From Nemertoderma westbladi (lineage: Eukaryota; Animalia; Xenacoelomorpha), in the NCBI GenBank assembly GCA_032718475.1, contig JAUCBJ010000013.1, positions 20,428 through 84,427 on the forward strand: DNA of 64,000 bases. The letters are read 5' to 3'. The translations under genes were made by a program, and so were the position numbers. Shown here in pieces: positions 6,749-59,700 of the stretch. The notes under the pieces are model-generated. The model searched no databases and had not been told where the DNA came from. It worked only from the letters and a program-made list of their open reading frames with translations. The first letter of the stretch is position 1. Each line of letters starts with the position of its first letter.

Positions 6749-7493
6749 TTTTGGTTTCGCACGGTTGCAAAGTGACTTTGCGACAACAGCTAAACGGCAC
6801 ATCGTCCACTAAATATCTCCCGTCAAAACTTCTTCTTTCCTCCACTTCCCCCGCAGTTGTATCAATATACCTCGAATTAACCCACTGAACACCGAACCAA
6901 TCCTGGTAAGATTCACTCCCACAGCATTGCAACTCCAACTGAAGCACGTCAACTTGCTCTTTTACGTAAGTGCTGTTTGGGTACTGCTCCATAACTTTGG
7001 ATATCCCTCTAGAAAGCGAATTCATTATGTGAGATTCAAGTTGAAAACAAACTATTGAAGCTGCTATTATTATAACTCCAAGAATAATATGGGCTAAAGT
7101 AAATAAATAAAGCCAAACATTAGATGATAAACGCGTTTCTTCATCTTGACTACTGAAACAAGTTTTCGCTGTGAATATGCCCAATACGATTTGAGCTACT
7201 CCCGTTATTATAAACAATAAACTAAAAGTGACGTCACTGTAATCTTTTAGTAAATGTACATAACCTCCAATCCAAACTCGTATCGCTATCGCGAATACAA
7301 TCATAAGTTTCCCACTAAATATAGTCAGACAACTGAGGAACCAGGATATTCTCGCTAACACCTGTCTGCTTCCGCCACTCAGTTTCAGGGTCATCAATCG
7401 GTGTCCATCTCTAGGCAAACCGTTACGGTTCCTCGGAAATAATGCACTTTTTAGTCTCGAAAGTTTCGGGAGACTCAAATGGCTTCCTGTCAT
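6749..7493 (-). CDS. Peripherin-2/ROM1-like tetraspanin, exon 1 (TM1-3 and most of EC2)
   Basis: Three hydrophobic segments, then LQLELQCCGSESYQDWFGVQWVNSRY and DDVPFSCC, hallmark RDS/peripherin motifs. Donor placed at AAA A|gtgaca (phase 1, compatible with exon 2); the exact donor is uncertain. Confidence 0.85.
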
Positions 7494-7612
7494 TTTTTAA
7501 TATGTTTATTATGATTACGATATAATTTACTGTCAGCAAAAATTATTTATTAATAGAGTGACATAATGCCAGATATCTTTCCAGTAGGGAATTCGTATAA
7601 ATAAAGACTTGG

Positions 7613-8284: not shown

Positions 8285-8343
8285 AATGTGTCAGGATTTA
8301 TATATTATGGTTCAATTTAACTAGCAATTGTTTATCTAATATA

Positions 8344-28829: not shown

Positions 28830-29800
28830 ACTACACCAGGGTGGAAATTATAGTCTTTAAAGTATTATTGAATCCTGTATACCTCATGTTCTAAACATGT
28901 CCTTAGATCATCATAATGATGATGGGGTGATGATAACTCCACCTACTGGCTCCAGAAGTCAAGGAAATCCTGCCAAGTACCTAACTGATCTAGACTTTGC
29001 TGATGGCTTAGGAGAGTACTTTCAGAATAGCTCATATTAGAACAGGTTGCTTCTAGTGTTGGTCTTTTTATTAACTCCAGAAAGACCAAAATTTTAACAG
29101 TTAACTTTGAAAGTCCTCAGCAAGTCTCTGATCGGATGAGCATAAGCTCAAAGGATGGTATGCTTGACCATGTGGACGACTTCTGTTACCTGGGATCATG
29201 GATCCGGAAGTCAGGTGAGGACCTTCGAATACGTAAGGGAAAAGTCTGGGCAGCAGCCTTGAATAGGCTTTCCAGGAATTGGAAGTCACCGAGAATTAAT
29301 CGGATACTTAAGGTCCGATTATTTAGAGCAGCAGTAGCTACAGTACTCCTCTATGGGAGTCCATGCTGGGCTCTAACTGCTGAGGACACCAAATCTCTGG
29401 ATGGCACATTCACAAGAATGCTACACCGGGTTCATTGTGTTAAGTACAATGCACACATCTCCAATCAGACACTATATAACATTGGAGGTGTCTCATTGGT
29501 TCGCCCAAGCTTGACACTAGAACAAAATCGCCTCCGCTTTGCAGGACATTGCTTTCGCCGTGAGGACCAGCCAGTTCATAATCTTGTACTTTGGCAGCCT
29601 CATGGAGTGATTAAGCATGGCGGACAGCCCATGACTTTCTGGAGACGCATCTTAAAGGGCACTGGCCTTGAAGATGCGGATGATCTAGCAAATGTCATGG
29701 TTGATATGGAGTTGTGGGGGCGCAATTTTGTCGACAAGCCGGCACAGCATTCTTAAAAATGCAGCTGCAATGCAGCATGCCGATCGAGGTAGTAGTAGTA
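28830..29800 (+). pseudogene. 5'-truncated RTE-clade LINE (RT C-terminus and 3' UTR)
   Basis: LTDLDFADG, DDFCYLGSWI, KVRLFRAAVATVLLYGS, RLRFAGHCFR; (gta)n tail at about 29790. Confidence 0.85.
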
Positions 29801-34892: not shown

Positions 34893-35051
34893 TTCCGACA
34901 GTCTCCCCTTTGTGGTCTGATTGGGAGTGGGTGGGGAATTGTTCTTCTACTTGCGGTGGAGGGTTCCGTCTGCGAGTTAGAAACTGCACGCAGGGAGACT
35001 GCGAAGGTTGTCATAATGGATATCGCCCTTGTAATACTCAGCCATGTACTG
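34893..35051 (+). CDS. Sema5: Semaphorin-5-like gene, exon: TSP1 repeat 3
   Basis: tacag|TT...ACT G|gtaagt. WSDWEWVGNCSSTCGGGFRLRVRNCTQGDCEGCHNGYRPCNTQPC, with the Sema5-type C-x-G-C spacing. Confidence 0.9.
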
Positions 35052-35183: not shown

Positions 35184-36116
35184 CTAATTCCCTAATGTCA
35201 CAGTGTCCGATTGGATACACTTCCTGAACTGCTTTTACTATAGTGCTGGGCTGCGCAAGCCCAATTCAACTAAAAGTTCTAGAGATTTCGCACTGTTGTG
35301 TATCTAAGCAAGATACCGTAGACATTATTGGTCACCCAAACCCAGCAGTATAAAGGCAACCTTGCTTCTGCTGGAGAGTAAAGAAATGGTTGGGTAGTTA
35401 GTGTTCAGCATTGGGAGTTAGTGTGGCGCTCTCCCTTATAGTTATACTGTAGGTAACAGCCAAGAGAGAGAAGAGCCTTCGGGTTCGGGTTGCCTCCGGT
35501 GCGGTGGTTTATGTTTTACACTTTTACCGATCACTTTACTTTAACTGGTAAGTGATACTAAATTTTTTCTTATCCAACACAGTAAAGACTTTATATTATA
35601 ATCATATTGTAAATAAACAGAATTGCTAAGTAAAGTAAATGTAAATTATGGGTCCTACGGTAATTTATTGTGGTAGTGTGTAAAAAAAAGTGAGAATCAA
35701 CATAGTTTAGTGCCACGAGAACCTTGTAGTACAGCGCCGTCGACGGCCCATATTGGTAATCGGTACTTAATTTTTTTATCTGTCATAATTTAACTTTATA
35801 ACTTTATCATTTATATTTGTTAGGCGCTTTTTCCCGTCTTCGACTAACGAAAGATAATACAATGCTTTGCCATTACGGGAAAGGTGTAGGCTACAGGGGC
35901 ACGTTATTTTAACCAAAACAATAAACTAAAGTCAATAGTTACAGTTTTATTTTTGGGAGTAATCAGCTGTTATTTGGGTTGATTTTCACCTGGAGAGGGA
36001 TGAATTTTCTTTGCGTCCAGATCCCCAGTTGGGTATTATTTGTTTACTTTCTCTTTCTAGTTGCTATGTAAACTAGAGAGTGATAAAAAAAATAGAAGAA
36101 CAAATTATTATATATA

Positions 36117-36654
36117 TGTTAGCTTATTCAATCCCGCCAACACCCCATAAAGTTATTAGCCGATAAGCAATATTGGGAGCCACGAGATTGGGCAATTAAC
36201 CAACTCGTGCCATCCCAATGAGAGTGGGAAGGAAGCACACAATAGAGGGTCAGGGGCCAAACCCCTAACCCAAGGAGAACAGGTGGAGTGAACGGGAATA
36301 CTCCACGGGGCGCCAACAAGGGTATTAACCAATCAGAGGGGGGAATGGCATCGATTGAGTAGCAGTAAGGCCACCGTGCAATATAACCAATAACCTATTA
36401 ATCAGTGATTCAGTTATCTCAGTGCAGCAGTGCTAGCGTAGGGTACAGTCAATTAGTTTAGTTAGGGGATCACGGGACTTTAGTTACCGTATCCCGCCTA
36501 CCGTATAATTCACAATATATCTATATCCTATAACCTATTATTATACACCGAACTTCAGAACTCAGTTATCTTTATTTCACTCTTATACACGGCGGGGACG
36601 CGTGGACTAAATACCACATCGGATAAATCGGGATCCCTCCTGGATCCCGTCACA
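36117..36654 (+). repeat. 5' LTR
   Basis: tgttagcttattcaatccc...ggatcccgtcaca; CCAAT box, TATA-like and TCAGTT initiator-like motifs inside. Confidence 0.95.
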
Positions 36655-36733
36655 GTAACTAAAGCCGAGCTGCCGCCCTAGTTAAACTCTAAGAACTGCA
36701 ACCTAGCTAGCCGAATCATCAGCCACAAACGAG

Positions 36734-37756
36734 ATGAGTGAGTCGGGCGAGACACCACCGCGGACCCCGGACGAAGACCTAACGATCCGCGAGGCCGCGA
36801 CCAAACGATACAGGCCCACGACGCCGGAGCCATCGATAACGGGCGAACCGGAAGCACAGGACGAGGAGGGCCTGGAACCCGAAGTCGAGCCAAGAGAGAA
36901 AGAGAGCGAGACGGAGGGAGAAGGAGATGAGTCGACACGGGACGGAGGACGGCGCGCCGATGTCGCCGGCCAGCTACCGGCCGAGGGCGACGAGCGGCCC
37001 ACCGAATCGGTGGGGCCGACGGTGCGACGCCGGACGCGAAGAGACGGAGGAGAGATTAGTACCGATGTCGCCGGCCAGCTACAGGCCGAGGGCGACGGAC
37101 GGCCCACCGGAACGGCGACGGTGGAGCCGCCGGTACGACGTCGGACCCGGAGGGACGGAGGAGAGGTCGGCGACGAGGACGTCGGGGTTTCTGACCGACT
37201 TCGACGGGCCTACAACGCGACCCGGAAGCTGATAAACGACGCCAAGAAGGAAGGGGCGAAGGTAGACGAGGTGAGACTGAGAAAGCGACTAGGTGAGTCG
37301 GATAGACACTTAAATTACCTGATACGTTTTGGGCAGAGAGAACTAGCCGGGGAGAGAGCAAAGGGAATTGCAGGCGAACTGTTTGAACTATGGGAGTGTG
37401 GGAGTATGGGACCTAGCATAGCGTCAGTGTACATAGGGCCATACTTAATCGATGCCCGGGGAGTAAAACCGGTGGGTTGGAGGGGACTCGAAGGGGGCGA
37501 ATCCGAGGTTAACACCGAGGATTCGGCCTCGTCGGTCGGAGAAAGCTCCGGGAGGCGGGGGAAAGTTAGTAGGTCGGGAAGGCGGGGGAAGTCCGTCGTA
37601 ACCGATAAGTCTGTTACATCCTCCGCGAAAGAAAGAGCGGTGAGGAAAGATAGGAGCCGCATACCGTCTCAGCATGGCAGAGCAAGGTCAGAGAGAAATG
37701 AAGGAACGGCTAGAGGAGGGAAGAGTGCGGTTAGAGAGGGAAACGGTATTGCTTAG
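36734..37756 (+). CDS. BEL/Pao element: N-terminal Gag-region ORF (probably frameshift-split from the downstream ORFs)
   Basis: 340-aa ORF starting 80 nt after the LTR. Acidic/charged, overlaps the next ORF; one base removed near 37645 would fuse them. Confidence 0.6.
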   Translation: MSESGETPPRTPDEDLTIREAATKRYRPTTPEPSITGEPEAQDEEGLEPEVEPREKESETEGEGDESTRDGGRRADVAGQLPAEGDERPTESVGPTVRRRTRRDGGEISTDVAGQLQAEGDGRPTGTATVEPPVRRRTRRDGGEVGDEDVGVSDRLRRAYNATRKLINDAKKEGAKVDEVRLRKRLGESDRHLNYLIRFGQRELAGERAKGIAGELFELWECGSMGPSIASVYIGPYLIDARGVKPVGWRGLEGGESEVNTEDSASSVGESSGRRGKVSRSGRRGKSVVTDKSVTSSAKERAVRKDRSRIPSQHGRARSERNEGTARGGKSAVREGNGIA

Positions 37757-39098
37757 AGAAACCGGAGAAAGGGCCGAAAGGGCTTTGAAAAGCCTAAGGG
37801 AGTATGATGAGATAGAGGAAAGGGAGTGTAGGGAGCGTGAAGCGAGAGAGGAAAGGGAACGCAGAGAGCGTGAGGCAAGGGAGGACGAGGAACGCAAGGA
37901 ACGTGAGGCAAAAGGGGAAGAGGAACGCAAGGAACGTGAGGCAAAAAGGGAAAAGGAACGCAAGGAATATGAGACGAGAAAGGAAAAGGAACGCAAAGAG
38001 CGTGAGGCGAGACGAAGGGAGAGCATTAAGAGTGCCGCAGACTCGGCCATCAAGGACACCCAGGAGCGTGAGGGGAAAATGGCAGAGAGTGAAAAAGAGC
38101 GCAAGGAATTAGAGAAACGGCAGAGTGAGTTTGCGGGAAATATAATTAGAGGGGAGCACGAGTTGGAATACGTGCGAGCGACGCCGTCTGAAACCGGGGC
38201 CGGCTCGAGTATTTTTGAGGAGCCGAGGGCCGTAGATATATTTATTAATACTCCACTGACAGGGACCGCACGACAGACCCAAAACTGGTGCGACCGTACG
38301 GGCGGGGGGGGGGGTAATAATAATGGTACAGTAGACGTTGTTGATATTAATAGTACCGTATGGGATAACGCTAATCAAACCTTTATTACAGGAAATACTT
38401 TGCCTAGTGGTAGTAATTTAAATTTAAATCAGAACAATCCCAGTGTTAATGTAGAAAATAATCCTAATATTGATGTAGTTACGCAAAATAATTCAAATAA
38501 TCAAAATAATAACTCGAATTCGGACCTACAAAATAACTTAAATAACGCGATTACACAGAATAATTCGAATAATTCAAATAATGATCTTAGCCCGAATTTA
38601 CAAAATAATTCAGATAACGTAGTCGCGCAGAATAATACAAATGATTTTGTTTCAAATGAGCAAATTAATTCCGTTTCCAATATGGGTGCTATTAATGTAA
38701 ACACGTCGGGCCTACGTAACCAGGGAGCAGAGGGCCTGGTAGGCCACGTAGTTAGTAGACAGGGAGCAGAGGGCCTGGTAGGCCACGTAGTTAGTAGACA
38801 GGGAGCAGAGGGCCTGGTAGGCCACGTAGTTAGTAGACAGGGAGCAGAGGGCCTGGTAGGCCACGTAGTTAGTAGACAGGGAGCAGAGGGCCTGGTAGGC
38901 CGCGTAGTTGGTAGGCAGGGAGTAGAGGGCCTGGAAGGCCACGCAATAGCAGAGGGAGAGGCGGGGGTGAACAGACCCGACTGTGGTAGGGTTGATGTGT
39001 CGACTAGAGAGATATATAGTGGCGGGGCGAGAGGTAGCGAAGTAGAATGTAGCGGGTGGGGGGGGGGGGGCTACAAGGGCCCCACAACAGAGAGTTAG
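37674..39098 (+). CDS. BEL/Pao element: Gag coiled-coil/Asn-rich segment
   Basis: 474 aa with E/R/K coiled-coil repeats, an N-rich tract and 13-aa repeats. Ends just after a long poly-G run. Confidence 0.65.
   Translation: MAEQGQREMKERLEEGRVRLERETVLLRETGERAERALKSLREYDEIEERECREREAREERERREREAREDEERKEREAKGEEERKEREAKREKERKEYETRKEKERKEREARRRESIKSAADSAIKDTQEREGKMAESEKERKELEKRQSEFAGNIIRGEHELEYVRATPSETGAGSSIFEEPRAVDIFINTPLTGTARQTQNWCDRTGGGGGNNNGTVDVVDINSTVWDNANQTFITGNTLPSGSNLNLNQNNPSVNVENNPNIDVVTQNNSNNQNNNSNSDLQNNLNNAITQNNSNNSNNDLSPNLQNNSDNVVAQNNTNDFVSNEQINSVSNMGAINVNTSGLRNQGAEGLVGHVVSRQGAEGLVGHVVSRQGAEGLVGHVVSRQGAEGLVGHVVSRQGAEGLVGRVVGRQGVEGLEGHAIAEGEAGVNRPDCGRVDVSTREIYSGGARGSEVECSGWGGGGYKGPTTES
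38721..38943 (+). repeat. Coding 39-bp tandem repeat (QGAEGLVGHVVSR, about 6 copies)
   Basis: cagggagcagagggcctggtaggccacgtagttagtaga repeated. Confidence 0.95.
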
Positions 39099-39222
39099 CG
39101 GCGAGAGGGGGGGGGCAGAGAGTGTCCCACAGCCGTCAGCGGACAATGCGAGGGCCGAACAAGGTAAACCGCAACAACCGGCGACGGAAAGTAATAGGGG
39201 GATTGCGAGTATCCCCAGCGAC

Positions 39223-40056
39223 GTGCGATCGAGCAGAGAAAGACAGGTTGACGTCGCGGGAGGGCAGACGGAGCGTCGAGCCCGATCAGAGGAGGAAAGA
39301 AGAACAGTGGGGTTTAACCGGGAGGTCGACGAGAGATCTCGTGAGCGGGAATATTCCACTGATAGGAGAAGAGAGGAAGACAGTAGTAGAAGTATCGCCG
39401 CAAACGATAGAAGAGCGAGGACGGACAGCGAGCCGTCGGTAGTCGAGATGAGAACGGAGAGTCAGTGGGGTCGGACTCCGGGAGATTGCCGTCGCCCCGG
39501 AGGGATGCGATCCGGTGAGACGCATTACACGCCGAGAGAGGGGTACGCGATGTACCGGTACGAAGATGAAAACAGTGGAGAGGGGGGTCGAAGAGAAACT
39601 TTCCGACGGAATATACCTACCGATCGAGAATACGGTAGCCGCGGGGAGGATTATTCGAGAAGAATAAACTTCGATCCCGAGCAACACATGCAGACTGTAG
39701 GGCATACTGTAGGTCTTACTGCACATACCGTAGGCCATACTGAGAGAGGCAATGTAGGCGATAGGATAGCGCGGACAACGGGATTAAACCCGGAAGTCGC
39801 GGAATACATACCGGCGAGTAGGCCAGAAGCTGATAGGCCTATACCGGTACCAGCACAGCAGTATGACTACAGCATGCAGGGACATAACATATACCCAGGG
39901 GAGGGGGGAATTATTGCGGATAGGTGTATGGGCCCCAACATATTAACATCAACCCCAGTACCAGACATACCGGTGGGGGGGGGGGACAGGGTGACATTCC
40001 CCCATCACAATATCAACAATATACCCCGACAGGAACAAGAACAACGAGACCCCTAG
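39223..40056 (+). CDS. BEL/Pao element: Gag linker segment between poly-G runs
   Basis: The frame is open from the G-run at about 39110 to past the G-run at about 39980; includes LNPEVAEYIP. Confidence 0.55.
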   Translation: MRSSRERQVDVAGGQTERRARSEEERRTVGFNREVDERSREREYSTDRRREEDSSRSIAANDRRARTDSEPSVVEMRTESQWGRTPGDCRRPGGMRSGETHYTPREGYAMYRYEDENSGEGGRRETFRRNIPTDREYGSRGEDYSRRINFDPEQHMQTVGHTVGLTAHTVGHTERGNVGDRIARTTGLNPEVAEYIPASRPEADRPIPVPAQQYDYSMQGHNIYPGEGGIIADRCMGPNILTSTPVPDIPVGGGDRVTFPHHNINNIPRQEQEQRDP

Positions 40057-42710
40057 ATGAAAACAGGTCGTGTGATACAGACATATGGAGGGGGCCGCTA
40101 CCCCCGATGACATATCCGAGTCAGAGAAGATCAAGAAATAGGACGGACGAACCGCACCAGACAGGGGAAACTATACAGCACCCGTCGAATCCATTAGAAG
40201 CGCAGGCAATGGGGATGGCCACGTTGATCGATGCGTTGAAAACGAGGATCGAATTACCACCCGTGGAACCGTTCAAATTCGATGGGAGCAGGCCGGAAGA
40301 ATACTTACAGTTTCGGCGAATGTATAGTAACGAAATACTAACAAAAAACTTGACGCAGGCGGAGTGCCTAAAGTATCTACAAGTATACACGGGAGGCCCA
40401 GCATACGACATCGTGAGGCAATATCAGGGAATAGAGGGCGGCTTCACGACAGCATGGCGGGCACTGGATAGGGAATACGGGCACCCGGCCAAGATCATCA
40501 GGCAAACGCTGAGAGGCATAACATCGGGTGGCCTACAGGATAATCCCGTTAGCATTAAGACGTTTGCTAACAAAGTCGAGAAGGCGCTGATCGTGCTGAA
40601 GACGCTAGACGCGCCGTACGAGCTCAACGCGTCCAATAACATCACCACGATAGCGCAGGCACTACCGAGCTGGCTGCGCAACAAATGGAGGAAGATCGCT
40701 TTCTCCACCCGAGACAAGAAGGGTGCGGAACCAGGTTTAGAAGAAATGTCAAACTTCTTAAACTACGAGGCTGAACTAATAACTGACCCAGTCTATAGTG
40801 AAGATAGCCTGGGAAAGGGACCAAAGACAGATCACTACAGGCCCAAACCAGAGCACAATACATCAAACGCATTGCCGAGGCTCAGACAATCATTGCCATA
40901 CGCAGCGACGCAGGGGACTGCAAGTCCACAGGCAAACGAAGATAAGACAACATCAAGGGACGGACAGGGGAACAATAACAACATGAATAAACATAACCCC
41001 AGTACGTCCAGTAGGCCAAACCCAGTCAATAAGAATAGTAGGGACTTTGGTACGAATATAACTGCGATACGCAATGCATTGTATAAAGAGGGCTACGACC
41101 CAAAGAGCAAATGCCAGTTACACGCAAATGCGCTTCATAAAACTATGAATTGCAGGTACTGGCAGGCGCTACCGAGGCAAGACCAGATAGATTACGCGTC
41201 GAGCAATAAAATCTGCTCGCGATGTGTGAAGAGTGGACACAAGGCCAGGGAATGCCAAGAGAAGCCGGTCAAGTTTGGCCAAAGGAGAGGCCAGACGATG
41301 GCAACGAGCACAGTAGGGGCGAAGAAGAGAGGAACAGTGCTACTTGGAGTAGTACCAGTACGAGTGATCGGGGAAGGCAATCGATCAGTAACAACACTAA
41401 TGCTGGTTGATAGTGGAGCTGCCTTCACATTAGTTGAGGAATGGGTGGCCGAAGAAATAGGGTTGAGAACGATGCCAAGCAGGATGGCGGTAACAACCAT
41501 CTCTAGCAAAGATGAGATCCTAGAGATGAGGACAGGACGGTGCGCAATTGCAGCAGTAGCACCAGGATGCGATTATGGGGCAACCATCGACCCCATCCAA
41601 GTAATAGAGTCAATCAACATCAATGCCAGGCGGCCAACCAACATCGAGGTCGAGCAATACAAATTCCTGGACGACATTGACTTCTCGATCCCAGACGTGG
41701 ACGTTAGGAAGGTATCCATCATAGTAGGAATGGACTGCCCGACGGCCCACGAAAGAATGCAAACGGTCTTCGGCGAAGACAAGCAGAGCGACCCGGTGGC
41801 CATACTAACACCATTCGGGTGGACACTGACAGGCCCAATTAAGAGTAATATACCATTCAATGTGTCCGAGAGTTCAGGATGCATGGTGCCAGGAACCGAC
41901 GAGATAGAGGAGAGGTCAGAGATGGGCAATAGTGGTAGACAGCTAGAAGTAGAAGCAACACCAAGAGAGTGGGCGGAGGAGAATGGTATGGATGCAGAAG
42001 ATCTGGAGACGATGGGTTGGAATAAGGGTCCCAGCAAGTATCGGTATGGAGATGGAGAGGAGCGGACGGTGGAGTGTCGGGAGGACAAACCGGAGAAGTG
42101 TCCGGTGGAGTGTCCAGAGGAGCGTCCGGAAGAGACGCCGGTCCGGTTGAGAGGCATACCGACAAGGGGGAAGCCGAGTAAGAATACAAGATGGAAAGGG
42201 AGAAGATGTGAGACGATCAGACCAGGGGCAGAGAAGCCCATGAATAAACATATGGTGGACAAAGGAGGCGGGAGAGTAGGAGGCGTGCTGCGTACGCACG
42301 CGGAACTGACAGAGTGCGAGGGGGCATTACATGCGCAGACATCGTGTATACCGAAGGACGAACGGGGGTCGTTGAAGCCTTTAATGCCAGCACACATATT
42401 AAGGGGGAGGCCAGCAGAGATGGCATCTAAGATTAAGGAGAAGAACAGGGGCGGCATTATACCGCCGGGTGACACGTTGAAGGGTGGCACTTTGCCGCCA
42501 AGGGACGACCACGAGATCAGAAACATAAATAAGAGACAGCATTTGCCAAAACAGGAGAAAAGACCACCTATCGAATTGACAAGGAGAGCGGAGCGAAGAA
42601 TTAGAGAACCTATAGGGCGGCAGTGGGAGAGTTGCCTGCTGGAGGAATCACCCCTTGGGTCGCTGAGTTGTCCAACAGGTTGGACTAGGATGGAAGAGTT
42701 AGATCCGTAA
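39924..42710 (+). CDS. BEL/Pao Gag (DUF1759-like), zinc knuckles and aspartic protease; RT, RNase H and integrase core absent
   Basis: PFKFDGSRPEEYLQF...LKYLQVYTGGPA...AWRALDREYG; CQLHANALHKTMNC and CSRCVKSGHKAREC; LVDSGAAFTLV; IIVGMD...PVAILTPFGWTLTGP. Only a PLMPAHILRG relic of the post-integrase region remains. Confidence 0.9.
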   Translation: MYGPQHININPSTRHTGGGGGQGDIPPSQYQQYTPTGTRTTRPLDENRSCDTDIWRGPLPPMTYPSQRRSRNRTDEPHQTGETIQHPSNPLEAQAMGMATLIDALKTRIELPPVEPFKFDGSRPEEYLQFRRMYSNEILTKNLTQAECLKYLQVYTGGPAYDIVRQYQGIEGGFTTAWRALDREYGHPAKIIRQTLRGITSGGLQDNPVSIKTFANKVEKALIVLKTLDAPYELNASNNITTIAQALPSWLRNKWRKIAFSTRDKKGAEPGLEEMSNFLNYEAELITDPVYSEDSLGKGPKTDHYRPKPEHNTSNALPRLRQSLPYAATQGTASPQANEDKTTSRDGQGNNNNMNKHNPSTSSRPNPVNKNSRDFGTNITAIRNALYKEGYDPKSKCQLHANALHKTMNCRYWQALPRQDQIDYASSNKICSRCVKSGHKARECQEKPVKFGQRRGQTMATSTVGAKKRGTVLLGVVPVRVIGEGNRSVTTLMLVDSGAAFTLVEEWVAEEIGLRTMPSRMAVTTISSKDEILEMRTGRCAIAAVAPGCDYGATIDPIQVIESININARRPTNIEVEQYKFLDDIDFSIPDVDVRKVSIIVGMDCPTAHERMQTVFGEDKQSDPVAILTPFGWTLTGPIKSNIPFNVSESSGCMVPGTDEIEERSEMGNSGRQLEVEATPREWAEENGMDAEDLETMGWNKGPSKYRYGDGEERTVECREDKPEKCPVECPEERPEETPVRLRGIPTRGKPSKNTRWKGRRCETIRPGAEKPMNKHMVDKGGGRVGGVLRTHAELTECEGALHAQTSCIPKDERGSLKPLMPAHILRGRPAEMASKIKEKNRGGIIPPGDTLKGGTLPPRDDHEIRNINKRQHLPKQEKRPPIELTRRAERRIREPIGRQWESCLLEESPLGSLSCPTGWTRMEELDP

Positions 42711-42840
42711 AAGGTGCGGGCAGAGGTTTTACCTGTCTCTTAGAAGGAGCACCTTAGTCCAAGTTTTGGACTGAGGGGGGTGGGGTTGAGGGCGAGACGC
42801 CCTTCCCACACAAATAAAATAAAATAAAAATAAAAATAAA

Positions 42841-43530
42841 AGTTAGTTAGTTAGTAGGTACGTAGTACCTAGAGTTAGTTAGTCAGTAGGTACGTAGTAC
42901 CTAGAGTTAGTTAGTTAGTAGGTACGTAGTACCTAGAGTTAGTTAGTTAGAGGGTACGTAGTACCGATAGTTAGAGAGTTAGAGGGTACGTAGTACCAAT
43001 AGTTAGTTAGAGTTAGAGGGTACGTAGTACCGATAGTTAGAGAGTTAGTAGGTACGTAGTACCTAGTTAGAGTTAGAGGGTACGTAGTACCGATAGTTAG
43101 AGAGTTAGAGGGTACGTAGTACCAATAGTTAGTTAGAGTTAGTAGGTACGTAGTACCTAGTTAGAGTTAGAGTTAGAGGGTACGTAGTACCGATAGTTAG
43201 AGAGTTAGAGGGTACGTAGTACCAATAGTTAGTTAGAGTTAGAGGGTACGTAGTACCGATAGTTAGAGAGTTAGTAGGTACGTAGTACCTAGTTAGAGTT
43301 AGAGTTAGAGGGTACGTAGTACCAATAGTTAGTTAGAGTTAGAGGGTACGTAGTACCGATGGTTAGAGAGTTAGTAGGTACGTAGTACCTAGTTAGAGTT
43401 AGAGTTAGAGGGTACGTAGTACCAATAGTTAGTTAGAGTTAGTAGGTACGTAGTACCTAGTTAGAGTTAGAGTTAGTAGGTACGTGGTACCTAGTTAGAG
43501 TTAGAGTTAGGGGGTACGTAGTACCATTAG
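42841..43530 (+). repeat. Tandem array of about 21 hairpin cores GGTAC-GTA-GTACC separated by variable (AGTT/AG)n linkers
   Basis: Counted by eye; unit length about 28-38 bp. Confidence 0.95.
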
Positions 43531-44042
43531 TTAGAGAGAGAGAGAGAGTGAGAGATAAAAGGGATATATAGGATATAGATATTAGTTAGCAGTAAGTAGA
43601 GTTAGTAGCGAGAGGGGGGCATATGAGTGCAGCTGGATAAATCGTGTGGCCACACGACGCATACTGCTGTACTGCATAGGCCCACTGAGTAGGCCAGAAT
43701 ATGGATCAGAGAGAGAATAGAATAAATCCATAGGCAGTAGTAAGTAGTAGGACAGTAGAATCAAAGCAAAATAAACAAATAAATAGAATAGGGCTAAAAT
43801 CGGAAAATAGTGGTAACACAAGGAAAGTCGTTCTAGAACATAATAAAAGTAACAGACGGAAATTGTAAATTAGGCTGATTTACTAGCTCCGAAATTAATT
43901 AGATTAAATTAAGCTTGAAAGGCGCAGTTAAGTAGAAAAGTAGGCCATTATCGAACTGTACGAAACATCTTAAATACTTCACTCATCTGTATTGCGCCTT
44001 GGTAAGGCACCACCCTGCAGGTGAGCGAGTGTAGTGTTCGGA

Positions 44043-46577
44043 ATGGCGAGTAAGCTGATCAGGAAGAGAAAGGCGGAGTCAGGAGGAAAAGAAATATTGG
44101 TGGATTTCACCGAAAGACACCCGGAGGAGAAGACGAGAGGATACTACGAGAGGTTGGAAAGGGGTCATGCGGCACGAGCGCTGCAGGATCACTTCCGGGA
44201 GGCGCACGAACAGCGGTTGGTCGGGACCTACGGGACGCCGTCGCTGGACAACGCGATCTTCCAACACTTCCACTACGTGGTGAAAGGAGACGAGGCGAAG
44301 TTCGGGATTCCGAAGTATCCGAGGGAATCGCCGAGGAAGGACTGGAAAAGATTCATAGAGTCTGTCAACAGAGGAGGATATATGATCCTAGATGACGAGG
44401 GAACCGTGGAAGACAAAGCGGGTTCGAGACGAGGAACGGCAGGGTCGGCCAGGACCATACTCTTGCATTTGGCAGCGCCAAATGGGGACATCTTCTTATT
44501 CGACCTAGGGACGTATGGGAAGAAGGACGGGCCGAAATTAGACCGATTGCCGAAAGCGGTACAAGTCTTAGTAAGAGAAAAGTCGACGACGAAAGTGGGA
44601 TCGGCGATTCGCGAGGACGCGGAGAGGATCATCGGTCCGGACGCCACCAACCTCCTGGATATGCAGAAAGTCTTTATGGCTATGACGGCACCGGATGGAT
44701 TGGGGGTGGTCGAGAACACAGGCCAATGCGGGGCGGTGGCGATGGGCCAATTATTGGGGCTCGTATGCCACAAACCAATGGATTGGGGGAAGTTTAGGGA
44801 AGAATACGGAGCAGAACTAGCGAACTCGCTGAAGTGGGGAGCGAGACCGGGAAAGCAGGAGGTATATCAGTTTCGCAGAGGAGCGATAAAGGTATATCAG
44901 AAGCGATATATCCTGCAGGAGGACTGGATGATGATAAGTTTGCTTAACTTATTCATGACCGTAGTTATCGAAAGGGAACCAGGGGCATTTCTGTTATCGG
45001 GATCACCCCTAAGCTACAGGAGAGCCTTTAAAGTGGCCTTTGACGGTCTGGTAGACCACCCGGGGCTGAAGGGCGAGTCGGTGTACTACAACAGCCGACA
45101 TCTGGTAGACGGGGAGACAGATACACCGTATCAGAGATGGGAGCAGCTAGAGGCGGACAGACGAGAAGCAAAGCGACTGGAAGAAGTCGCTAGACGGGAG
45201 AGGATAGAAGCAGAGGAGAGGGAAGAGGAGGCCAGGGCACAGAGTTACGGCTTCGAGGAACAGGCGGGCCTAGACGAACTTCATTGGACTTCGTCAGGGA
45301 GTTCGGGGGAGTCTCTAGGGCGAGAATTGGGATGGACGGTGGGATCGCCGAAACAGTCGACGTCGGGGTTGCACACGATGCCCATACCAGCGGGCGCCGA
45401 GGGCGACCAACCGCCAAGGAAGTTAAGGGAGCTAGAGGGATGGAGAGCTACGGGCGAGAGCCAAGGCGGGAAGGGACATAGTGGATCCATCGGGATACCG
45501 GGATTGGAGACACTACCAGAAGAGGAGGACGACGACGACGAGTTCGGAGAGATGCCGCCCATCGAGAGGATAGGCCACTCGGACACGGACTGGGTTGGCG
45601 GAAGGGTGGTGACGGCCAGTGGGGCGAGGGCCTTCTGGAACAGATCCGGCAAGCGGACCTGGGTGCACGAGGAGCCGGCGATGGATTTCGCGGGGAGCAC
45701 CATCAGGTTGGGCGAGCAACCGGGAACGGCACCACGGATAGTATTCGGGGAGACGATGCCCGAGAGGGGCGGAGAGATAGACGTAAACAGGGAGAGCAAC
45801 GTAGAGAAGTTCGCCTACCAGCGACTCCATAGACCGCGGAGATCGCTTGGGACGAAAGACGAGGTGGGACGCGAGACATTGGTACTCGGCTGCGACTACT
45901 GTGGGAGACAGACCCATCGGGAAAGCAGCTGCCTATACCGGTTCCAACGGGGAACCTTTTGTCTCTACTGCAGAGAACCAAGTCACAGGATGGGGGCGTG
46001 TCCACGGTTGCATAACCGATGTCCAAAGTGCCACTTTCGGGGACACTACGGACGCGAGTGCGACTGGATGAGCGACGAGGAGAAGTTCACGAGGTTCGAG
46101 GAGTGGGCCGACGTCGGGGCCATGACGCGCCAGCGCATGAAGGCCCAAGAGTTCAAGTGGGGTTTCTTCCTTATAAACCAGGAGACCCACATGGAAATCA
46201 TAAAGCGGAGGTTACCGTTTACCTATCAAGAGGTAGCTACGGCGGCATCGTTCGCCGGAGTTATGAACACGCAACGGCACCTGGACAGGTGGACACCAGA
46301 GAACCGGAGGGAGTTTAGGGATTTCTTGGCGGAACACGTACCAAAGGCAATGAAAATGATCCTATGGGACGCCACACGAGGGAGACAACCAGGCCATTCT
46401 GAGGGGCCACCGGCGAAGCGGTATCGGGCTTTAATAACACCAGCGCCCAAGGAGCCGACGACCGGGATCAGCAAGGAAGTGGCAGCGAAGGTCCGGAAGC
46501 AGAAAGCGGATGATGCCAGAGGAGCGGTGATAACCAAGAAACGGGCCAGGGAAGAGGACGTGAGGAGGAACAGATAA
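44043..46577 (+). CDS. Retrotransposon cargo ORF: DEDD(y)-like 3'-5' exonuclease domain (WRN/Mut-7/EXD-like) plus three CCHC zinc knuckles
   Basis: Uninterrupted 844 aa from ATG 44043. ILDDEG (ExoI), LLHLAAPNGDIFLFDL, LPKAVQVLV...KVGSAIREDAE (ExoII), LLDMQ, LLG..HKP, Q-x-x-YILQED (ExoIII-like). Knuckles CDYCGRQTHRESSC, CLYCREPSHRMGAC and CPKCHFRGHYGREC. Confidence 0.8.
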   Translation: MASKLIRKRKAESGGKEILVDFTERHPEEKTRGYYERLERGHAARALQDHFREAHEQRLVGTYGTPSLDNAIFQHFHYVVKGDEAKFGIPKYPRESPRKDWKRFIESVNRGGYMILDDEGTVEDKAGSRRGTAGSARTILLHLAAPNGDIFLFDLGTYGKKDGPKLDRLPKAVQVLVREKSTTKVGSAIREDAERIIGPDATNLLDMQKVFMAMTAPDGLGVVENTGQCGAVAMGQLLGLVCHKPMDWGKFREEYGAELANSLKWGARPGKQEVYQFRRGAIKVYQKRYILQEDWMMISLLNLFMTVVIEREPGAFLLSGSPLSYRRAFKVAFDGLVDHPGLKGESVYYNSRHLVDGETDTPYQRWEQLEADRREAKRLEEVARRERIEAEEREEEARAQSYGFEEQAGLDELHWTSSGSSGESLGRELGWTVGSPKQSTSGLHTMPIPAGAEGDQPPRKLRELEGWRATGESQGGKGHSGSIGIPGLETLPEEEDDDDEFGEMPPIERIGHSDTDWVGGRVVTASGARAFWNRSGKRTWVHEEPAMDFAGSTIRLGEQPGTAPRIVFGETMPERGGEIDVNRESNVEKFAYQRLHRPRRSLGTKDEVGRETLVLGCDYCGRQTHRESSCLYRFQRGTFCLYCREPSHRMGACPRLHNRCPKCHFRGHYGRECDWMSDEEKFTRFEEWADVGAMTRQRMKAQEFKWGFFLINQETHMEIIKRRLPFTYQEVATAASFAGVMNTQRHLDRWTPENRREFRDFLAEHVPKAMKMILWDATRGRQPGHSEGPPAKRYRALITPAPKEPTTGISKEVAAKVRKQKADDARGAVITKKRAREEDVRRNR

Positions 46578-47289
46578 GTTCCCGGAGACGAGGGAATGAG
46601 ACTGAGACTGGGAAGTGGTGCGCCTGGAAGGCGCCGCATGTAACGTACGAACTATTAAGTATAAATTTTATTAATGCAAATAATCATATAAGTGCAATTT
46701 GTATGTACGTACGTAGTGATTAGCAGTAAAATACATACGTTTGGAGTAAGTACTATAGTCATACAACCTTTCTCAATTAGCTACTGGGACTGGGGGACAA
46801 TTGACTATGGCACTATGGACGAGACAACTGACAATTTCACGCTTCTTGAGTGCGACGGCACGAGAGAGGGGGGGAGGTTCGTCAGGAGAGATAAAACAGT
46901 CAAAGTGGAGTTGAGAATCGGAATAAGAGTGCGAAGTGCGGAGAGAGTGCGAACGCAATTCTAGTGTGGGGGGGGGGGGGAGAATGAGAGGCTGAGTAAG
47001 GGACGAGGAGGTCCGGGGGTATGAGAGAGTTAGGGTGAGAGTGAAGGTGAGATAGGGCGAAAATGTTGGGGAAACAAAAGTTGCGTGGGAGGTGAGCGCG
47101 ACCGGCCCGACATGAGACGCCAGGCACACAGGGTAGCGATATCATACCCATAGGGGGCGGCCTGGAAAGCCGACCCCGAGAGAAAAGAATTCCACCCCAC
47201 ACCCGATACTAGATCGGGATCCAGCGGGATTGTAACGCACTTTTTTGGTTGATGCTATCTTCTTACCGGGAAGATAGCATGGGGGGGAG

Positions 47290-47827
47290 TGTTAGCTTAT
47301 TCAATCCCGCCAACACCCCATAAAGTTATTAGCCGATAAGCAATATTGGGAGCCACGAGATTGGGCAATTAACCAACTCGTGCCATCCCAATGAGAGTGG
47401 GAAGGAAGCACACAATAGAGGGTCAGGGGCCAAACCCCTAACCCAAGGAGAACAGGTGGAGTGAACGGGAATACTCCACGGGGCGCCAACAAGGGTATTA
47501 ACCAATCAGAGGGGGGAATGGCATCGATTGAGTAGCAGTAAGGCCACCGTGCAATATAACCAATAACCTATTAATCAGTGATTCAGTTATCTCAGTGCAG
47601 CAGTGCTAGCGTAGGGTACAGTCAATTAGTTTAGTTAGGGGATCACGGGACTTTAGTTACCGTATCCCGCCTACCGTATAATTCACAATATATCTATATC
47701 CTATAACCTATTATTATACACCGAACTTCAGAACTCAGTTATCTTTATTTCACTCTTATACACGGCGGGGACGCGTGGACTAAATACCACATCGGATAAA
47801 TCGGGATCCCTCCTGGATCCCGTCACA
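47290..47827 (+). repeat. 3' LTR
   Basis: Same length and apparently the same sequence as 36117-36654; preceded by a hairpin and the PPT. Confidence 0.95.
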
Positions 47828-47839
47828 ATATAATAGACG

Positions 47840-47912
47840 AGCATCCGTGGTGTAGTGGTTAGCATACCTGAACGTTTATCGGGAGACGCGGGTTCGATCG
47901 AATTCATTTTTT
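47840..47912 (+). mobile_element. tRNA-derived SINE head / tRNA pseudogene
   Basis: gcatccgtggtgtagtggttagca (A-box) ... gggttcgatc (B-box); no 3' acceptor stem. Confidence 0.55.
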
Positions 47913-49075: not shown

Positions 49076-49249
49076 CTGAAAATCCAACAACGCTGTGGAG
49101 TGACTGGTTGCCATGGAGCTCGTGTAGTTCTACGTGTGGGATGGCCAACAGGTTTCGGTCCCGCCATTGTGTCAAATTCAGTGACCAATCAGGTGATTGC
49201 ATCGGTGATCACCAGGAAACCAAACAATGTGAACTAGATGGTTGTCAAG
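49076..49249 (+). CDS. Sema5: Semaphorin-5-like gene, exon: TSP1 repeat 5
   Basis: tacag|CT...CAA G|gtaata. WSDWLPWSSCSSTCGMANRFRSRHC...DCIGDHQETKQCELDGC. Confidence 0.92.
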
Positions 49250-49929: not shown

Positions 49930-50300
49930 AAGACGCACTGCATATGAAAGTATGCTGAACATACGTGAGCGAGAGACTGAATCAAAGGCCTTGAAGAAGT
50001 CAACATAGATAACAGCCAGATGCCTGTCTTTCATTTTTGATAACTCTTCAATTATCCTTCTAAGTGCCAAAATGGGCTCCATGGTCCCACGACCTTTACG
50101 GAACCCATTCTGATGTCCACGGAGCAGTTTCTCAATGGGATACCTGTTGCGATTTAATAGAATTCTATTGTATAGCTTTGCAGCAATCGAGATCAATGAG
50201 TTTCCCCGAAAAGAACCATAGAGTGTTAGGTTGCCCTTCTTGGGAACTGGCACCAACTTATTTGTTTTCATTTCTTGTGGGACTCTTGTCGCTCTGTACA
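49930..50300 (-). pseudogene. Older RTE-like RT fragment, interrupted by the + strand LINE
   Basis: PVPKKGNL...FRGNSL...HQNGFRKGRGT...YVDFFKAFDSV. Confidence 0.85.
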
Positions 50301-52293
50301 ATCTACCGATTCAATATACCAGAATATAATAACAGCCCACAAGGAATCAGCTAAGAGGCATATCCCCCAGAAACCTAAACGAAAACAGTATGTGCCATGG
50401 CAAAACTCTGAGGTTACTTGTAAGAGAGAAGATCTTAAGATAGCCTACAAAGTTAAAACCGAACAACCAACAACTGAAAACATTAACAAGGTTGAGAAAG
50501 CTAAGGACGATCTTAAATTGGCCTACAACATCAGCCAGGAAAAGTACATACAGGATAAAACTGAAGCAATTACAACTGCTCACATACAGCAACAATCAAG
50601 ACTTACCTGGCAAACTGTAAATGAGGTATCTGGTCGGGAAAAGTTGTGCAAAGGGGCGCCTCAAAGCCGATAGTCCTGAAGAACGTGTTGGGAAGTGGAA
50701 AAATCATTTCAGCAACTTGCTTGGGCAGACACCAAACATCGAGGTCAGCCCTACAAGGAAAATATATGACAAGACACTACCTATAGAAACAGGGGACTTC
50801 ACACCTGCCGAACTCCAAAGAAGCATTAAAAGCATGTCCAATAATAAAGCGAGTGGATTAGATGAAATCCCAGCGGAGGTATGGAAAACCGGAGTGCTAA
50901 ACAGACCATTATTGAATGTTTGCAACCGGATGTTAAAAGGGGGAAAGCCACCACCAAATTGGACTAAAGGTCAACTAAAACCTCTCCCCAAGAAAGGAGA
51001 CCTCGGCATACCAACAAACTATCGTGGGATTTGTCTGCTTGTGGTAGCTGCCAAATATACAATAAAATGATTCTATATAGGAGTAGGCCTCACATAGAGA
51101 AACTACTGCGTAAGAGCCAAAACGGATTTCGACCAAGTAGATCAACAATAGCTCAGATACTTGCACTACGGGGACTGATTGAAGGAATTAAGTCAAAGAA
51201 TCTCCCCGCAGTCATGACTTTTGTGGACTTCAAGAAGGCATTCGACTCCATCCATAGAGGTAAAATGCTTGAAATCCTAAGAGCTTATGGAATACCAGAA
51301 GTAATTGTTGCTGGCATTGGATTGTTATATTGTGACACAGACACAGAAGCCTCACCAGATGGTGAAACTGAGTTTTTCTCAATCCTGGCTGGCGTGCTGC
51401 AAGGTGACACATTAGCACCATTACTATTTGTAATTGTGCTGGATTACGCAATGAGGACGGCCACAAAGGGTGAAGATCTGGGAATCACACTTCAAGAACG
51501 CAGAAGTAGTAGATATCCGGCAACTACAGTCACAGGCACCGACTTTGCGGATGACATCGCCCTGCTCTCTAATACGCTAGCAGATGCACAGCTTCTACTA
51601 AATAAACTGGAGAGGGCTGCTAAGGAGGTTGGATTGCATATAAATGCTACAAAGACCGAATTCATGACCTTTAATGTTGATGGGAACTTGACAACCATTG
51701 ATAATAATCAACTAAGGAAGGTCGATGACTTCCAGTACCTTGGATCATGGATAGAGAGTAGCAAAAAGGACATAGAAGTTAGGAAAGCAAAGGCTTGGGT
51801 AGCTCTATCAAAAATGGATACCATCTGGAAATCAGATCTCTCCAGGCACCTGGAGACTAAGTTCTTTCGAGCCACAGTGGAAAGTGTATTTTTATACGGG
51901 GGTGAGACCTGGACACTAACTAAATCACTTGAACAACGAATTGATGGTTGCTACACAAGACTACTAAGGGCAGCCCTAAACATCAGCTGGAGACAACACA
52001 TGACAAACGCCGAGCTTTATGGAACAATACCACCTGTATCAACCACCCTCCGTGAACGCAGATTAAGATTCAGTGGGCACTGCTGGCGAAGTAAAGACGA
52101 GGTCATACCAGATCTACATCTCTGGCAACCAACTCATGGAAAGCGTAGTCGTGGACGACCGGCCATAACATATATAGATCAACTTGAAAGGGATACTGAA
52201 CTTGGGAGAAACGAAATTGCGACAACTATGGAGAATCGGGAAGCCTGGAAGGATCTCATTTCCACTGTCCGAGTTCGCTCGACGTAGTAGTAG
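50301..52293 (+). pseudogene. 5'-truncated RTE-clade LINE with a frameshifted RT
   Basis: ORF pieces 50275-50673, 50621-51070 and 51031-52287: KASGLDEIPAEVWK, NYRGI, QNGFR, FVDFKKAFDS, GVLQGDTLAP, DFADD, YLGS. (gta)n tail; possible TSD GTACA. Confidence 0.92.
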
Positions 52294-57344: not shown

Positions 57345-59700
57345 ATAGTCCAGCTCAATTTTCTAAAATTCGTACAATGTGTGGGGCGAGCCACGAAGTG
57401 AGTGAGCCTTAGCGTAGTGGTACCATTAATCAACCTGTCGTTCTGTCGTTCTGTCGTTCTGTCGTTCTGTCGTGTTCAATTTTAAACGTTAATAACTCGG
57501 CCAATCTTTGATGAAATCTATCCAAACTTGGTACACATGTTGTTTGGCAAAAGTTTAGAAATTTTCCAAGTAGAATTTCCGTGTGGCCTTCGAGAAGCTA
57601 AGATAATAGCAGTTAATTAGTTAATTAAGTTGATTGCGGTGAAAACGCCATTTTCAACCTGCCTTTTAAAGGAAATTAATTGTTTTACAGTATAAGATTT
57701 AAATAATTATACTTAAAAATTATACAGATATAATCCCCATACGCCATTCTATTATAGTTTTTAATTAGTTTAAGTGATTTGCTTTAATAAATGTGTCTTT
57801 AATTGATCTAAACGTAATTAAACCGCACAATTATTGAGTACAAATTTAATCCTTCCCATTATTGGTCAATAGGGTGTTACAAAAATCACTTTTTTGCCCC
57901 AATTGCTTGGAAACTTTGACATGCTTTGCCATTTTAATGTAGAAGTACAATGCAAAAAACCGTTTTGAAAAATATTTAGTGGAAGAGGTGTCACACGAGT
58001 CACAAAATCTGAGAAATTTAACAAAATATAGCAGTTTTAATTTACCGATAAATCTAGCGAGAGATGATTGCAATGATCTGAAACTCATGTTATGTAATGC
58101 ATTTATCATGGGCTTTCCAATAACGTTTTTGGCATTGTGAAATTGACAAGATCAGATGTGTCACATTGAGTGTGAAAAATTGATTTTTTTTTTAAAATAT
58201 AAGAAATTTAACAAAATATAGCAGTTTTAATTTACCGATAAATCTAGCGATAGATGATTGCAATGATCTGAAACTCATGTTATGTAATGCATTTATCATG
58301 GGCTTTCCAATAACGTTTTTGGCAATGTGAAATTGACAAGATCAGATGTGTCACATTGAGTTTGAAAACTTAACTAATTCTATATGGGAATGTGCTGGTC
58401 CCCCCTGAGTTAGTTCAACTATTACTGACCTGGCCATCTTTACATTGCCGCGATACACAGTAACTAACCTGTCATAAGCCCCCTCAGAGGCATTGTCATC
58501 ACCTATAAACGTACTTACCAATTCCTTCAGTTGACCTCTCAACTGTTGGTATAAGTAGTTGAATTTCTCAGTCGGTGAGAAATCCTGTTGAGCGACATTA
58601 GTCTTGATATAGTTGATGAAGGTTCTCCAATGTTTAGATAAACCAGTGAAGTGCGGAGGATGTAATGGTGGAAGATTGTGTCTCGGACTGAACTTAGAAA
58701 ACTCCACTGTGATTGAGTTGACCATAGTATTGTCTTCCCTTCCTACCCGTTGATGGACATAAGTTGGAATCGGTTCAACTGGTGAGTAGGATAACGTACC
58801 TGTGGACGAGTACGCGAATTCGTCCCGTGATAGGTTACCTTCTCACTGACTGGTGATCTATAGTCAGTCTCAAACTCTGAGTCTGCCTGAATATTTATAA
58901 CTGGGCATTCGTGGTTTAAACTTGGGATGGTCTTCAGGACGTTGGTACTGTTGTTCCTGTACTCTAAGCTTTTCATTCTCATGTTGAGCTCGTTCTACAT
59001 TGTCATTGACCTCATGGATATTACACCTAACATGGTCGAACTTTGACGTACTGAATTCTTTGCTGCACTTCTTGCACAACACCACATACAGTTTGAACTT
59101 GTCCCTGCACCTGATGGACTTGTGACTGAATATGTTGGACTTTACCTTTTTCTATGGATGACTTCATCCCACACTTCCTTATTACCTTCCCTAATTGCTA
59201 AATTTAATTGATACATATGGATGTTGGGCTTACCTGGAGTAGGACTTGGATTAAACCGCTCACTGTCTCGAGCTCCATCCCACTCGGCTTGATCGCCTTA
59301 TAATCGCCAATAATTATACTTAAAAATTATACAGATGCAATCCACATACTCCATTCTATTATAGTTTTTAATTAGTTCAAGTGATTTGCTTTAATAATTG
59401 TGTCTTTAATTGATCTAAAGTAATTAAAACGGCATAAAAAATTGATTCTCATTAAATACTGCTCATTTATTGGCCAACATGCTGGTACATAGATGGAAGG
59501 ATGTGTGTGTAAGGCGGCCAGTTGCTGGGAATGATTATTGGTCAAGTATCTGCTGGTGTGGAGCTAGCTGCTGGGAGTTGTGGCTGTAGACTAACCTGAG
59601 AGGAATTGTAATAGAGGCAACCAGTATTGCTATTCCAGCCCAATCACTGAATTGTGTTTATTATAGGCTGGACGGGCCGCATAACCGTTCGACTATTACT
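57345..59700. mobile_element. Possible Helentron-associated (DINE-1-like) repeat with internal microsatellite, internal duplications and an inserted fragment
   Basis: gtccagc/gctggac short inverted ends; (ctgtcgtt)x4-5 at 57436-57473; duplications 58010-58170/58200-58360 and 57707-57830/59310-59430. Confidence 0.4.
58351..58725 (-). pseudogene. BEL/Pao Gag (DUF1759-like) fragment
   Basis: LPPLHPPHFTG...WRTF...EKFNYLYQQLRG...AYDRLVTVY. Confidence 0.75.

Follow-up and report, generated by a model that had tools for sequence, protein, structure and literature searches.

Exonuclease genes have been described before as cargo of mobile elements. [quoted passage not shown] According to the rotifer study, these ORFs are family-specific acquisitions without a significant departure from neutrality (PMC5408684). 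The rotifer cases had not settled if a nuclease gene of this kind is of consequence to its element. For the Belpaoviridae, the ICTV profile lists env-like genes as the only extra genes (PMC8742986). The 64-kb stretch of Nemertoderma westbladi DNA analyzed here (the window; all coordinates are positions in it) contains on its plus strand, at 36117–47827, an element of 11,711 nt between two LTRs. In this element, a Pao-type capsid and a protease are followed not by Pol but by an ORF of 844 amino acids (aa), in which a predicted DEDDy exonuclease domain is combined with CCHC zinc knuckles. On balance, we consider it probable that the element is a recent pol-less copy of a BEL/Pao lineage in which this exonuclease-knuckle gene is conserved behind pol, and that the encoded protein would be an RNA-binding accessory factor acting on the element's own RNA. 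While BEL/Pao elements have been thought to add only env-like genes, this lineage stably keeps a nuclease-plus-knuckle gene under selection.

The accessory (cargo) gene resembles ORF3 of Juno and Vesta in its RNase D-like DEDDy fold, in the lack of a transmembrane (TM) segment and in being, in the relatives described below, a separate ORF 3′ of pol at the place of env. An earlier reading of the window, made from the sequence only, knew of no described element with this architecture; that extra 3′ nucleases are unknown is contradicted by the rotifer cases. The host element differs, being of BEL/Pao type, whereas Juno and Vesta are gypsy-like. Also unlike the rotifer ORFs as far as these are described, the nuclease is joined in one protein to three CCHC knuckles and to a C-terminal module that is conserved, and the gene descends with the reverse transcriptase (RT) and is under purifying selection. 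The rotifer study does not contain the term "CCHC", but notes a Cys-His-Cys motif in two ORFs (PMC5408684).

The same order of a 3′-5′ DEDD exonuclease and CCHC zinc fingers is described for RNase D of Trypanosoma brucei (TbRND; PDB 7C42/7C45), a cellular enzyme of mitochondria by which the U tails of guide RNAs are trimmed and which has four fingers and a linker of 28 aa. Its knuckles bind the RNA which the nuclease trims, with fingers 1 and 2 holding it upstream of the active site (PMC7797062). In the protein considered here, by contrast, the knuckles number three, the linker measures some 300 aa, a further module is present at the C-terminal side and the setting is a mobile element, and the likeness is to be taken as an analogy rather than as shown orthology. 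The host DEDDy proteins EXD2 (best profile match) as well as Nibbler/Mut-7 and Egalitarian (best fold matches) are host genes and not element cargo. Nematode Cer elements reportedly contain an extra domain. A literature search, which did not extend to Repbase, Dfam and GyDB, where such families may be held, revealed no DEDDy exonuclease ORF in a BEL/Pao element and none with knuckles; in a term look-up, "exonuclease" was absent from PMC3118150, PMC13524379, PMC9094657 and PMC12440569. The gene, named neither by Pfam nor by the literature sources, occurs in active-looking and in dead forms and alongside an unusual RT motif. New appear to be the BEL/Pao host lineage, the nuclease-knuckle fusion, the signs of selection over the long term in dead forms as well, an RT motif without its tyrosine and the retention of the gene in a pol-less family.

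Accessory ORF and its relatives

Pfam does not recognize the 844-aa protein, a word-indexed protein search with either the single protein or an alignment (A1) returned no match, and no relative of the ORF was found among viral contigs. An Atlas search yielded scores of 0.93–0.95 for the nuclease half, with PF01612 annotated on 34% of the members of one cluster (a lead), and scores under 0.9 only for the knuckle half. By scanning 1.84 billion representative sequences with HMMER, 74 proteins were found at E ≤0.001, mostly via the knuckle region; none of the ten that were looked up is named, and among 41 relatives submitted to Pfam three matched DNA_pol_A_exo1, below or near the cut-off. The relatives share the exonuclease, three knuckles and a C-terminal motif. 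A profile of 30 family sequences matched EXD2 at E 4.7e-11 and also TbRND, the one protein of solved structure for which the nuclease as well as the finger domain was matched. Another profile covers the N-terminal domain and was made without the query, to which it assigns 85.6 bits; its columns had been delimited on an alignment that included the query. On this profile D117, E119, D192, Y289 and E293 align with the DEDDy columns, so that the ExoI D-x-E and the ExoII Asp are present, as is the Tyr of ExoIII, followed in its Y-x3-acid motif by Glu in place of Asp. This Glu is found in 4 of 85 homologues. Decay of the present copy was rejected as its origin, since the residue is shared by P0004 and P0009, the two proteins with which the window protein groups (support 0.97).

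An AlphaFold model based on 75 sequences is confident over most of aa 100–340 and 610–770 and disordered at 410–608. Its structure matches are DEDD nucleases throughout, with the EXO domain of Nibbler (Z 14.6, root-mean-square deviation 3.2, 203 aligned residues) in first place, and include TbRND (Z 12.9) and EXD1 (Z 12.7), with Egalitarian among the best; identity in structural alignments to host DEDDy proteins is 11–20%. The N-terminal 380 aa modelled without an alignment reached a predicted local distance difference test (pLDDT) score of 32.5. As modelled, the N-terminal domain is a DnaQ-like DEDDy exonuclease fold of EXD2/Nibbler type, with predicted 3′-5′ activity. The DEDD exonuclease with CCHC knuckles that the sequence-only reading had proposed is thereby borne out by profile, fold and three knuckles (beginning at aa 617, 640 and 660), as is the absence of a TM segment (highest 19-residue hydropathy 1.3). 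The ORF is also open as claimed; it does, however, not lie directly at the polypurine tract (PPT), as its stop is located 712 nt upstream of the 3′ LTR.

A knuckle motif that 61 of the 77 proteins of the family possess retrieved at least 120 metagenome loci when used as query, 80 of which have flanks; the exonuclease was matched at 58 loci. Where 5 kb or more of upstream sequence was available, which was the case for 33 motif loci, Pol was found at 31, using a profile built from these loci. Independently of this profile, Pfam identified Peptidase_A17 in 23 of 24 long ORFs, a domain known as the Bel/Pao RNase H (PMC3985635), and DUF5641 is carried by the relatives as well. All well-flanked relatives with an exonuclease match possess Pol or part of it, and in complete relatives RT, Pao RNase H and integrase follow one another as is usual. 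In these elements the cargo forms an ORF of its own, its first ATG lying 39–1187 nt past the pol stop in 16 of 17 cases and the ORF overlapping pol in the remaining one. Across 20 elements, distances between the RTs are correlated with those between the cargo proteins (Mantel rho 0.85 and 0.88, reached in 0 of 5000 permutations), which shows shared descent and not co-evolution; RT identity across the lineage is 26–86%. Judging from these sequences, the gene was not captured by the present element, but is a standing second ORF of complete BEL/Pao elements, and the notion of a module peculiar to a non-autonomous element could not be upheld. One relative, L022 (5684–10931), is a 5.2-kb element with terminal repeats of 92% identity, partial gag, a C-terminal integrase remnant and an interrupted cargo ORF; it is an independent, decayed, Pol-deleted derivative. 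At four other loci (L005, L015, L043 and L051) the cargo frames comprise 1328–1592 codons from one stop to the next and include long extensions in which Pfam recognizes nothing.

The four acidic residues are kept in 23 of the 46 fully aligned locus domains and in 40 of 85 domains of a wider set, and the losses fall in several separate branches. The ratio of non-synonymous to synonymous substitution rates (dN/dS) was 0.04–0.23 for five pairs of dead domains, which are not independent pairs, and 0.04–0.48 for the nine computable of ten pairs. As about half of the homologues have lost catalytic residues and are nevertheless conserved, catalysis is unlikely to be the whole function. The constant function is likely RNA binding by the nuclease fold and the knuckles, with trimming as an option kept in some lineages. 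Egalitarian, a dead nuclease, likewise serves as an RNA binder, and so does EXD1, a dead nuclease of this fold (PMC5408684).

The RTs of this lineage (loci L002–L069) are themselves unusual, with LVDD, LIDD or IVDD replacing YxDD at motif C in 20 of 22. A published BEL/Pao domain set contains YVDD 619, YVDN 125 and YMDD 102 times as compared to LVDD 6, LIDD 4 and IVDD 4 times, and the available passages of that study do not mention the latter three at the RT motif (PMC3118150). All eight LIDD elements have a dead exonuclease, while nine of ten LVDD elements retain the four acidic residues; this pattern follows clades and may reflect shared ancestry only.

Copies of the element were gauged from contigs of sequencing runs matched to the window. 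The cargo half was matched by 9640, 6229 and 5377 contigs at 85–100% identity in three DNA runs from two studies; the gag half was likewise covered in two of these runs and more thinly in the run from a third study. A 136-nt cargo contig exhibited a depth of 3650 versus about 16 for single-locus contigs, roughly equivalent to 230 copies, with the contig over the left insertion junction (25 letters on the LTR side) serving as depth yardstick only. The family thus has, roughly, hundreds of copies, and its multi-copy nature is evident from thousands of variant contigs in the three DNA runs. Among the best-supported 40 of 289 substitutions, 28 are located in the ORF and 24 of these are silent (8.3 expected), while none of the 12 indels listed, of 20, falls within it. 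These variants indicate that the cargo ORF is under purifying selection, in agreement with the earlier presumption of constraint rather than neutral evolution. A deletion at 46055–46600, which takes away the last part of the knuckles together with the ORF's C-terminal portion, occurs at high depth in all three DNA runs and represents an amplified subfamily. In run X5, which bears another organism label and whose RNA status is a guess, 16 and 43 scattered contigs of low depth were present; these were not taken as evidence of expression.

Gag, protease and missing Pol

As RT, RNase H and integrase are absent, the element is filed as a non-autonomous BEL/Pao-type derivative and not as a complete member of the Belpaoviridae. 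It shares with this family the LTRs, the PPT, a Pao-type capsid, the nucleocapsid and the protease (PMC8742986), and its LTR length and PPT are within the family ranges (0.2–1.2 kb and about 10 nt, respectively). Unlike Belpaoviridae it has neither Pol nor a tRNA-type primer site, its extra gene is a nuclease, and its length exceeds the range of 4.2–10 kb. The LTRs have TG...CA ends, and a direct comparison of LTRs and flanks confirmed that the former are 100% identical and enclosed by a target site duplication (TSD), as had been stated earlier; the element was inserted recently. As the left flank is a TA run, the ATATA TSD is of low complexity.

Pfam detected DUF1759 (E 5e-11), an aspartyl protease (E 9e-5) and, weakly, a zinc knuckle in the capsid-protease frame (Table 1), and a gag-protease profile from the relatives scores the element at 31 and 64 bits. 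The 3.3 kb upstream of the capsid domain are, however, spread over three further overlapping frames. Copies are listed as differing in length near two of the three gag frame changes, so that these breaks may be peculiar to the present copy or stem from the assembly. The earlier statement that gag and protease are kept therefore stands for the protease and the capsid, but not for gag as one open frame, and production of its own particle by this copy is not supported, as its gag is split.

The absence of RT, RNase H and integrase, in contrast, was corroborated: an RT-RNase H-integrase profile built from 22 complete relatives found no Pol remnant in any of the window's six frames, the best independent E being 1.4. 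A test for YxDD alone would have been insufficient, as the RTs of 20 of these 22 relatives read L/I-V/I-DD. The tail that follows the protease is present in three runs in diverged (86–98%) and length-variable forms, and no join to Pol was seen among the 24 loose ends listed, of 1259. At tail site 42547, a single-contig depth ratio gives a rough estimate of 20–35 copies. A protein search found no longer proteins bearing this gag-protease, which is weak evidence. A 485-nt contig from another study crosses 42321–42757, including the stop of the gag-protease frame.

Table 1. Features of the BEL/Pao-type element (window positions).
Feature	Position	Strand	Remarks
Left TSD copy	36112..36116	+	5 nt, ATATA
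5′ LTR	36117..36654	+	538 nt, identical to 3′ LTR
Candidate self-primer	36478..36487	+	LTR nt 362–371, complementary to primer-site position
Primer-binding-site position	36655..36664	+	no TGG start; pairs with own LTR
5′ part of gag	36737..40056	+	low complexity, three overlapping frames in this copy; no Pfam match
Capsid-protease frame	39924..42710	+	928 codons, stop at 42710; capsid of Pao type (DUF1759), knuckle of the nucleocapsid, aspartyl protease; ~270-aa tail where Pol is expected
Tandem array	42841..43534	+	21 palindromic units (5–7 bp stem, 3-nt loop)
LTR complement	43567..43582	+	16 nt, perfect complement of LTR 36517–36532; 0/500 shuffles reach 16 nt
Accessory ORF	44043..46577	+	844 aa, uninterrupted
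DEDDy-type 3′-5′ exonuclease domain (predicted)	44220..45092	+	aa ~60–350; D117, E119, D192, Y289, E293
CCHC knuckles and following module	45891..46352	+	three knuckles (aa 617–673); conserved module to aa ~770
PPT	47281..47289	+	9 nt
3′ LTR	47290..47827	+	538 nt
Right TSD copy	47828..47832	+	5 nt, ATATA

Proposed role and rival explanations

The comparisons above show the architecture of the element and the fold of the protein, where the gene sits in complete elements, that it descends together with the RT, that it is under purifying selection both in this family and in relatives, and that catalytic residues were lost repeatedly while constraint persisted. In the role that we favor for the protein, the knuckles would grip the element RNA and the exonuclease pocket would hold its 3′ end, which might be trimmed in some lineages, with a division of labor between knuckles and nuclease like that in RNase D. 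The protein would act preferentially on the RNA encoding it, as Gag does, and this could be the reason why the gene was kept while Pol was dropped. Pol would be borrowed from a helper element for transposition, and the pol-less state would be old and common to many copies. Purifying selection, RT co-descent and retention after the loss of Pol argue that nuclease ORFs do matter to the element, and the naturally occurring active and dead versions offer a direct test of catalysis versus RNA binding.

Several observations weigh against this reading. The set of relatives is uneven, with 67 of the 80 flanked loci stemming from one accession series, and no more than 9 of 17 splits agree between the tree of the RTs and that of the exonucleases, with 3 of 10 strong exonuclease splits in conflict. 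In the protein itself, the last catalytic position is Glu and not Asp, also in its two nearest relatives (support 0.97), and the roughly 300 aa that link the nuclease to the knuckles are disordered in the model (predicted template modelling score 0.48), unlike the short linker of RNase D. Gag is not a single open frame in this copy, and the variants listed for its 5′ frames and for the protease end and tail are not mostly silent (silent 4/19, 7/12 and 1/6). Copies of the ORF with large deletions have multiplied, one form to about 18–40 copies, so that the gene is not required in cis by every copy. Finally, the depth drops several-fold over the tail at 41928–42611, which would also fit with a majority of copies having Pol there.

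This last point leads to a possible, though doubtful, alternative in which the family consists mostly of complete elements and the present copy is a minor derivative by internal deletion, the selection on the ORF having acted in unseen Pol-bearing copies. Besides the depth of the tail, which lies several-fold below that of protease and cargo, the presence of Pol or part of it in all well-flanked relatives with an exonuclease match would agree with this, and L022 is such a decayed case. Yet no Pol remnant flanks the tail, which is itself multi-copy, differs by up to 14% from copy to copy and has been shortened in various ways, with the same sequence resuming downstream; the lack of longer proteins with this gag-protease points, weakly, in the same direction. 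An unlikely role is that of a silencing suppressor, by which host Piwi-interacting or small interfering RNAs or their precursors would be trimmed or sequestered, with dead forms acting as decoys in the way EXD1 binds RNA uncut. The closest folds do include the small-RNA pathway nucleases Nibbler and EXD1, the family is at high copy number, its dead domains are conserved, and a silencing role has been raised for the rotifer ORFs (PMC5408684). However, WRN, RNase D, Rrp6 and polymerase exonucleases are found within about 2 Z units, so that the fold points to no particular pathway, and a suppressor acting in trans would be a shared good which a non-autonomous element might be expected to drop like Pol.

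It appears improbable that the exonuclease serves to edit nucleic-acid 3′ ends while reverse transcription takes place, be it by proofreading for the tyrosine-less RT or by trimming the primer. The motifs LVDD, LIDD and IVDD of 20 of 22 lineage RTs are rare in the published BEL/Pao set (PMC3118150), and the candidate self-primer described below would need a clean 3′ end. Against this, 9 of the 18 tyrosine-less RTs with an exonuclease match are paired with a dead domain, both YMDD elements carry the four acidic residues, and in nine relatives with a TGG primer site no LTR complement longer than 8 nt exists, the gene thus predating self-priming. Even more speculative, and quite improbable, is a combination in which a lineage with tyrosine-less RT uses the exonuclease as proofreader or primer editor and a pol-less, self-priming family trades nuclease and Gag for the Pol of a helper; if true, this would be a two-component retroelement with an editing nuclease. 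That the locus is an assembly chimera joined at the tandem array is very improbable, since identical LTRs and a TSD enclose both halves, both are multi-copy at similar depth, and the same gene order is found in relatives. Long G runs near two of the frame changes make sequence errors possible, and of the region at about 42710–44040, where a misassembly had earlier been considered, the part up to 42757, which lies before the array, is crossed by the independent 485-nt contig.

Priming, palindromic array and surroundings

Published cases of self-priming of the Tf1/Tj1 type are Ty3/gypsy elements with a mapped or inferred transcript start (PMC4600332). As in these, the sequence right after the 5′ LTR of the present element is complementary to a stretch inside the LTR and not to a tRNA, no TGG start being present after the 5′ LTR. 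The match differs in comprising 10 nt, in belonging to a BEL/Pao element and in being known from sequence alone. It is perfect, ends at the LTR boundary and was equalled by 13 of 20000 dinucleotide shuffles of the LTR at offset 0 and by 18 of 20000 at offsets 0–3; the pair probability is 0.84–1.0 from the three start points tried. We infer that the element RNA may prime reverse transcription from its own LTR sequence. For ten relatives the contig includes the junction of LTR and gag, and TGG-type primer sites are present in nine of them (the nine relatives with a readable junction were those searched for LTR complements; for L074 a later TGG match was tested). The idea that the nuclease exists to process the self-primer was rejected, as relatives with tRNA-type sites carry the same gene, which is therefore older than, and independent of, self-priming. 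Upstream of the PPT, 47206–47233 can pair with the 3′ end of the LTR at 36628–36658 (duplex −32.5 kcal/mol, no control), a possible RNA cyclization signal.

The hairpin array reported earlier between gag-protease and ORF is indeed present, its units being 28–34 nt long, and a spacer of about 500 nt separates it from the ORF. Its first 300 nt reach a fold z of −3.8 against 60 shuffles, as would be expected from any tandem palindrome without function. Such an array is absent from 14 of 14 pol-to-cargo spacers of relatives, and its assignment to the cargo module had to be rejected; the most plausible reading is that of a minisatellite particular to the family or to this copy. In 20 of the 21 units the loop is C-GTA-G (three units were folded), which we take to be of a type that forms very stable DNA mini-hairpins.

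The element probably sits in an intron, as exons with AG/GT borders, presumably of thrombospondin type, lie on both sides on the same strand (34893–35051 and 49076–49249). Rfam and ARAGORN gave no match in or beside the element. Eight nt past the right TSD, at 47841–47910, a single case of a repeat head was noticed which is high-copy in the sequencing runs and without an ARAGORN or Rfam call; we assume it to be tRNA-like, with A- and B-box-like parts. A weak Pao gag profile match at 58351–58842 on the minus strand (independent E 0.0035) is a remnant of another BEL/Pao-type element. By eye, broken RT frames of non-LTR retrotransposons were recognized at 50230–52287, 1934–3231 and 29031–29756 (all plus strand), as were, on the minus strand, a histone H1/sperm-protein-like frame with SPK-type basic repeats at its end (4489–5706) and a tetraspanin-like frame (6651–7496). 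A composite 288/365/454-nt repeat forms two clusters at 8300–13350 and 22860–25230.

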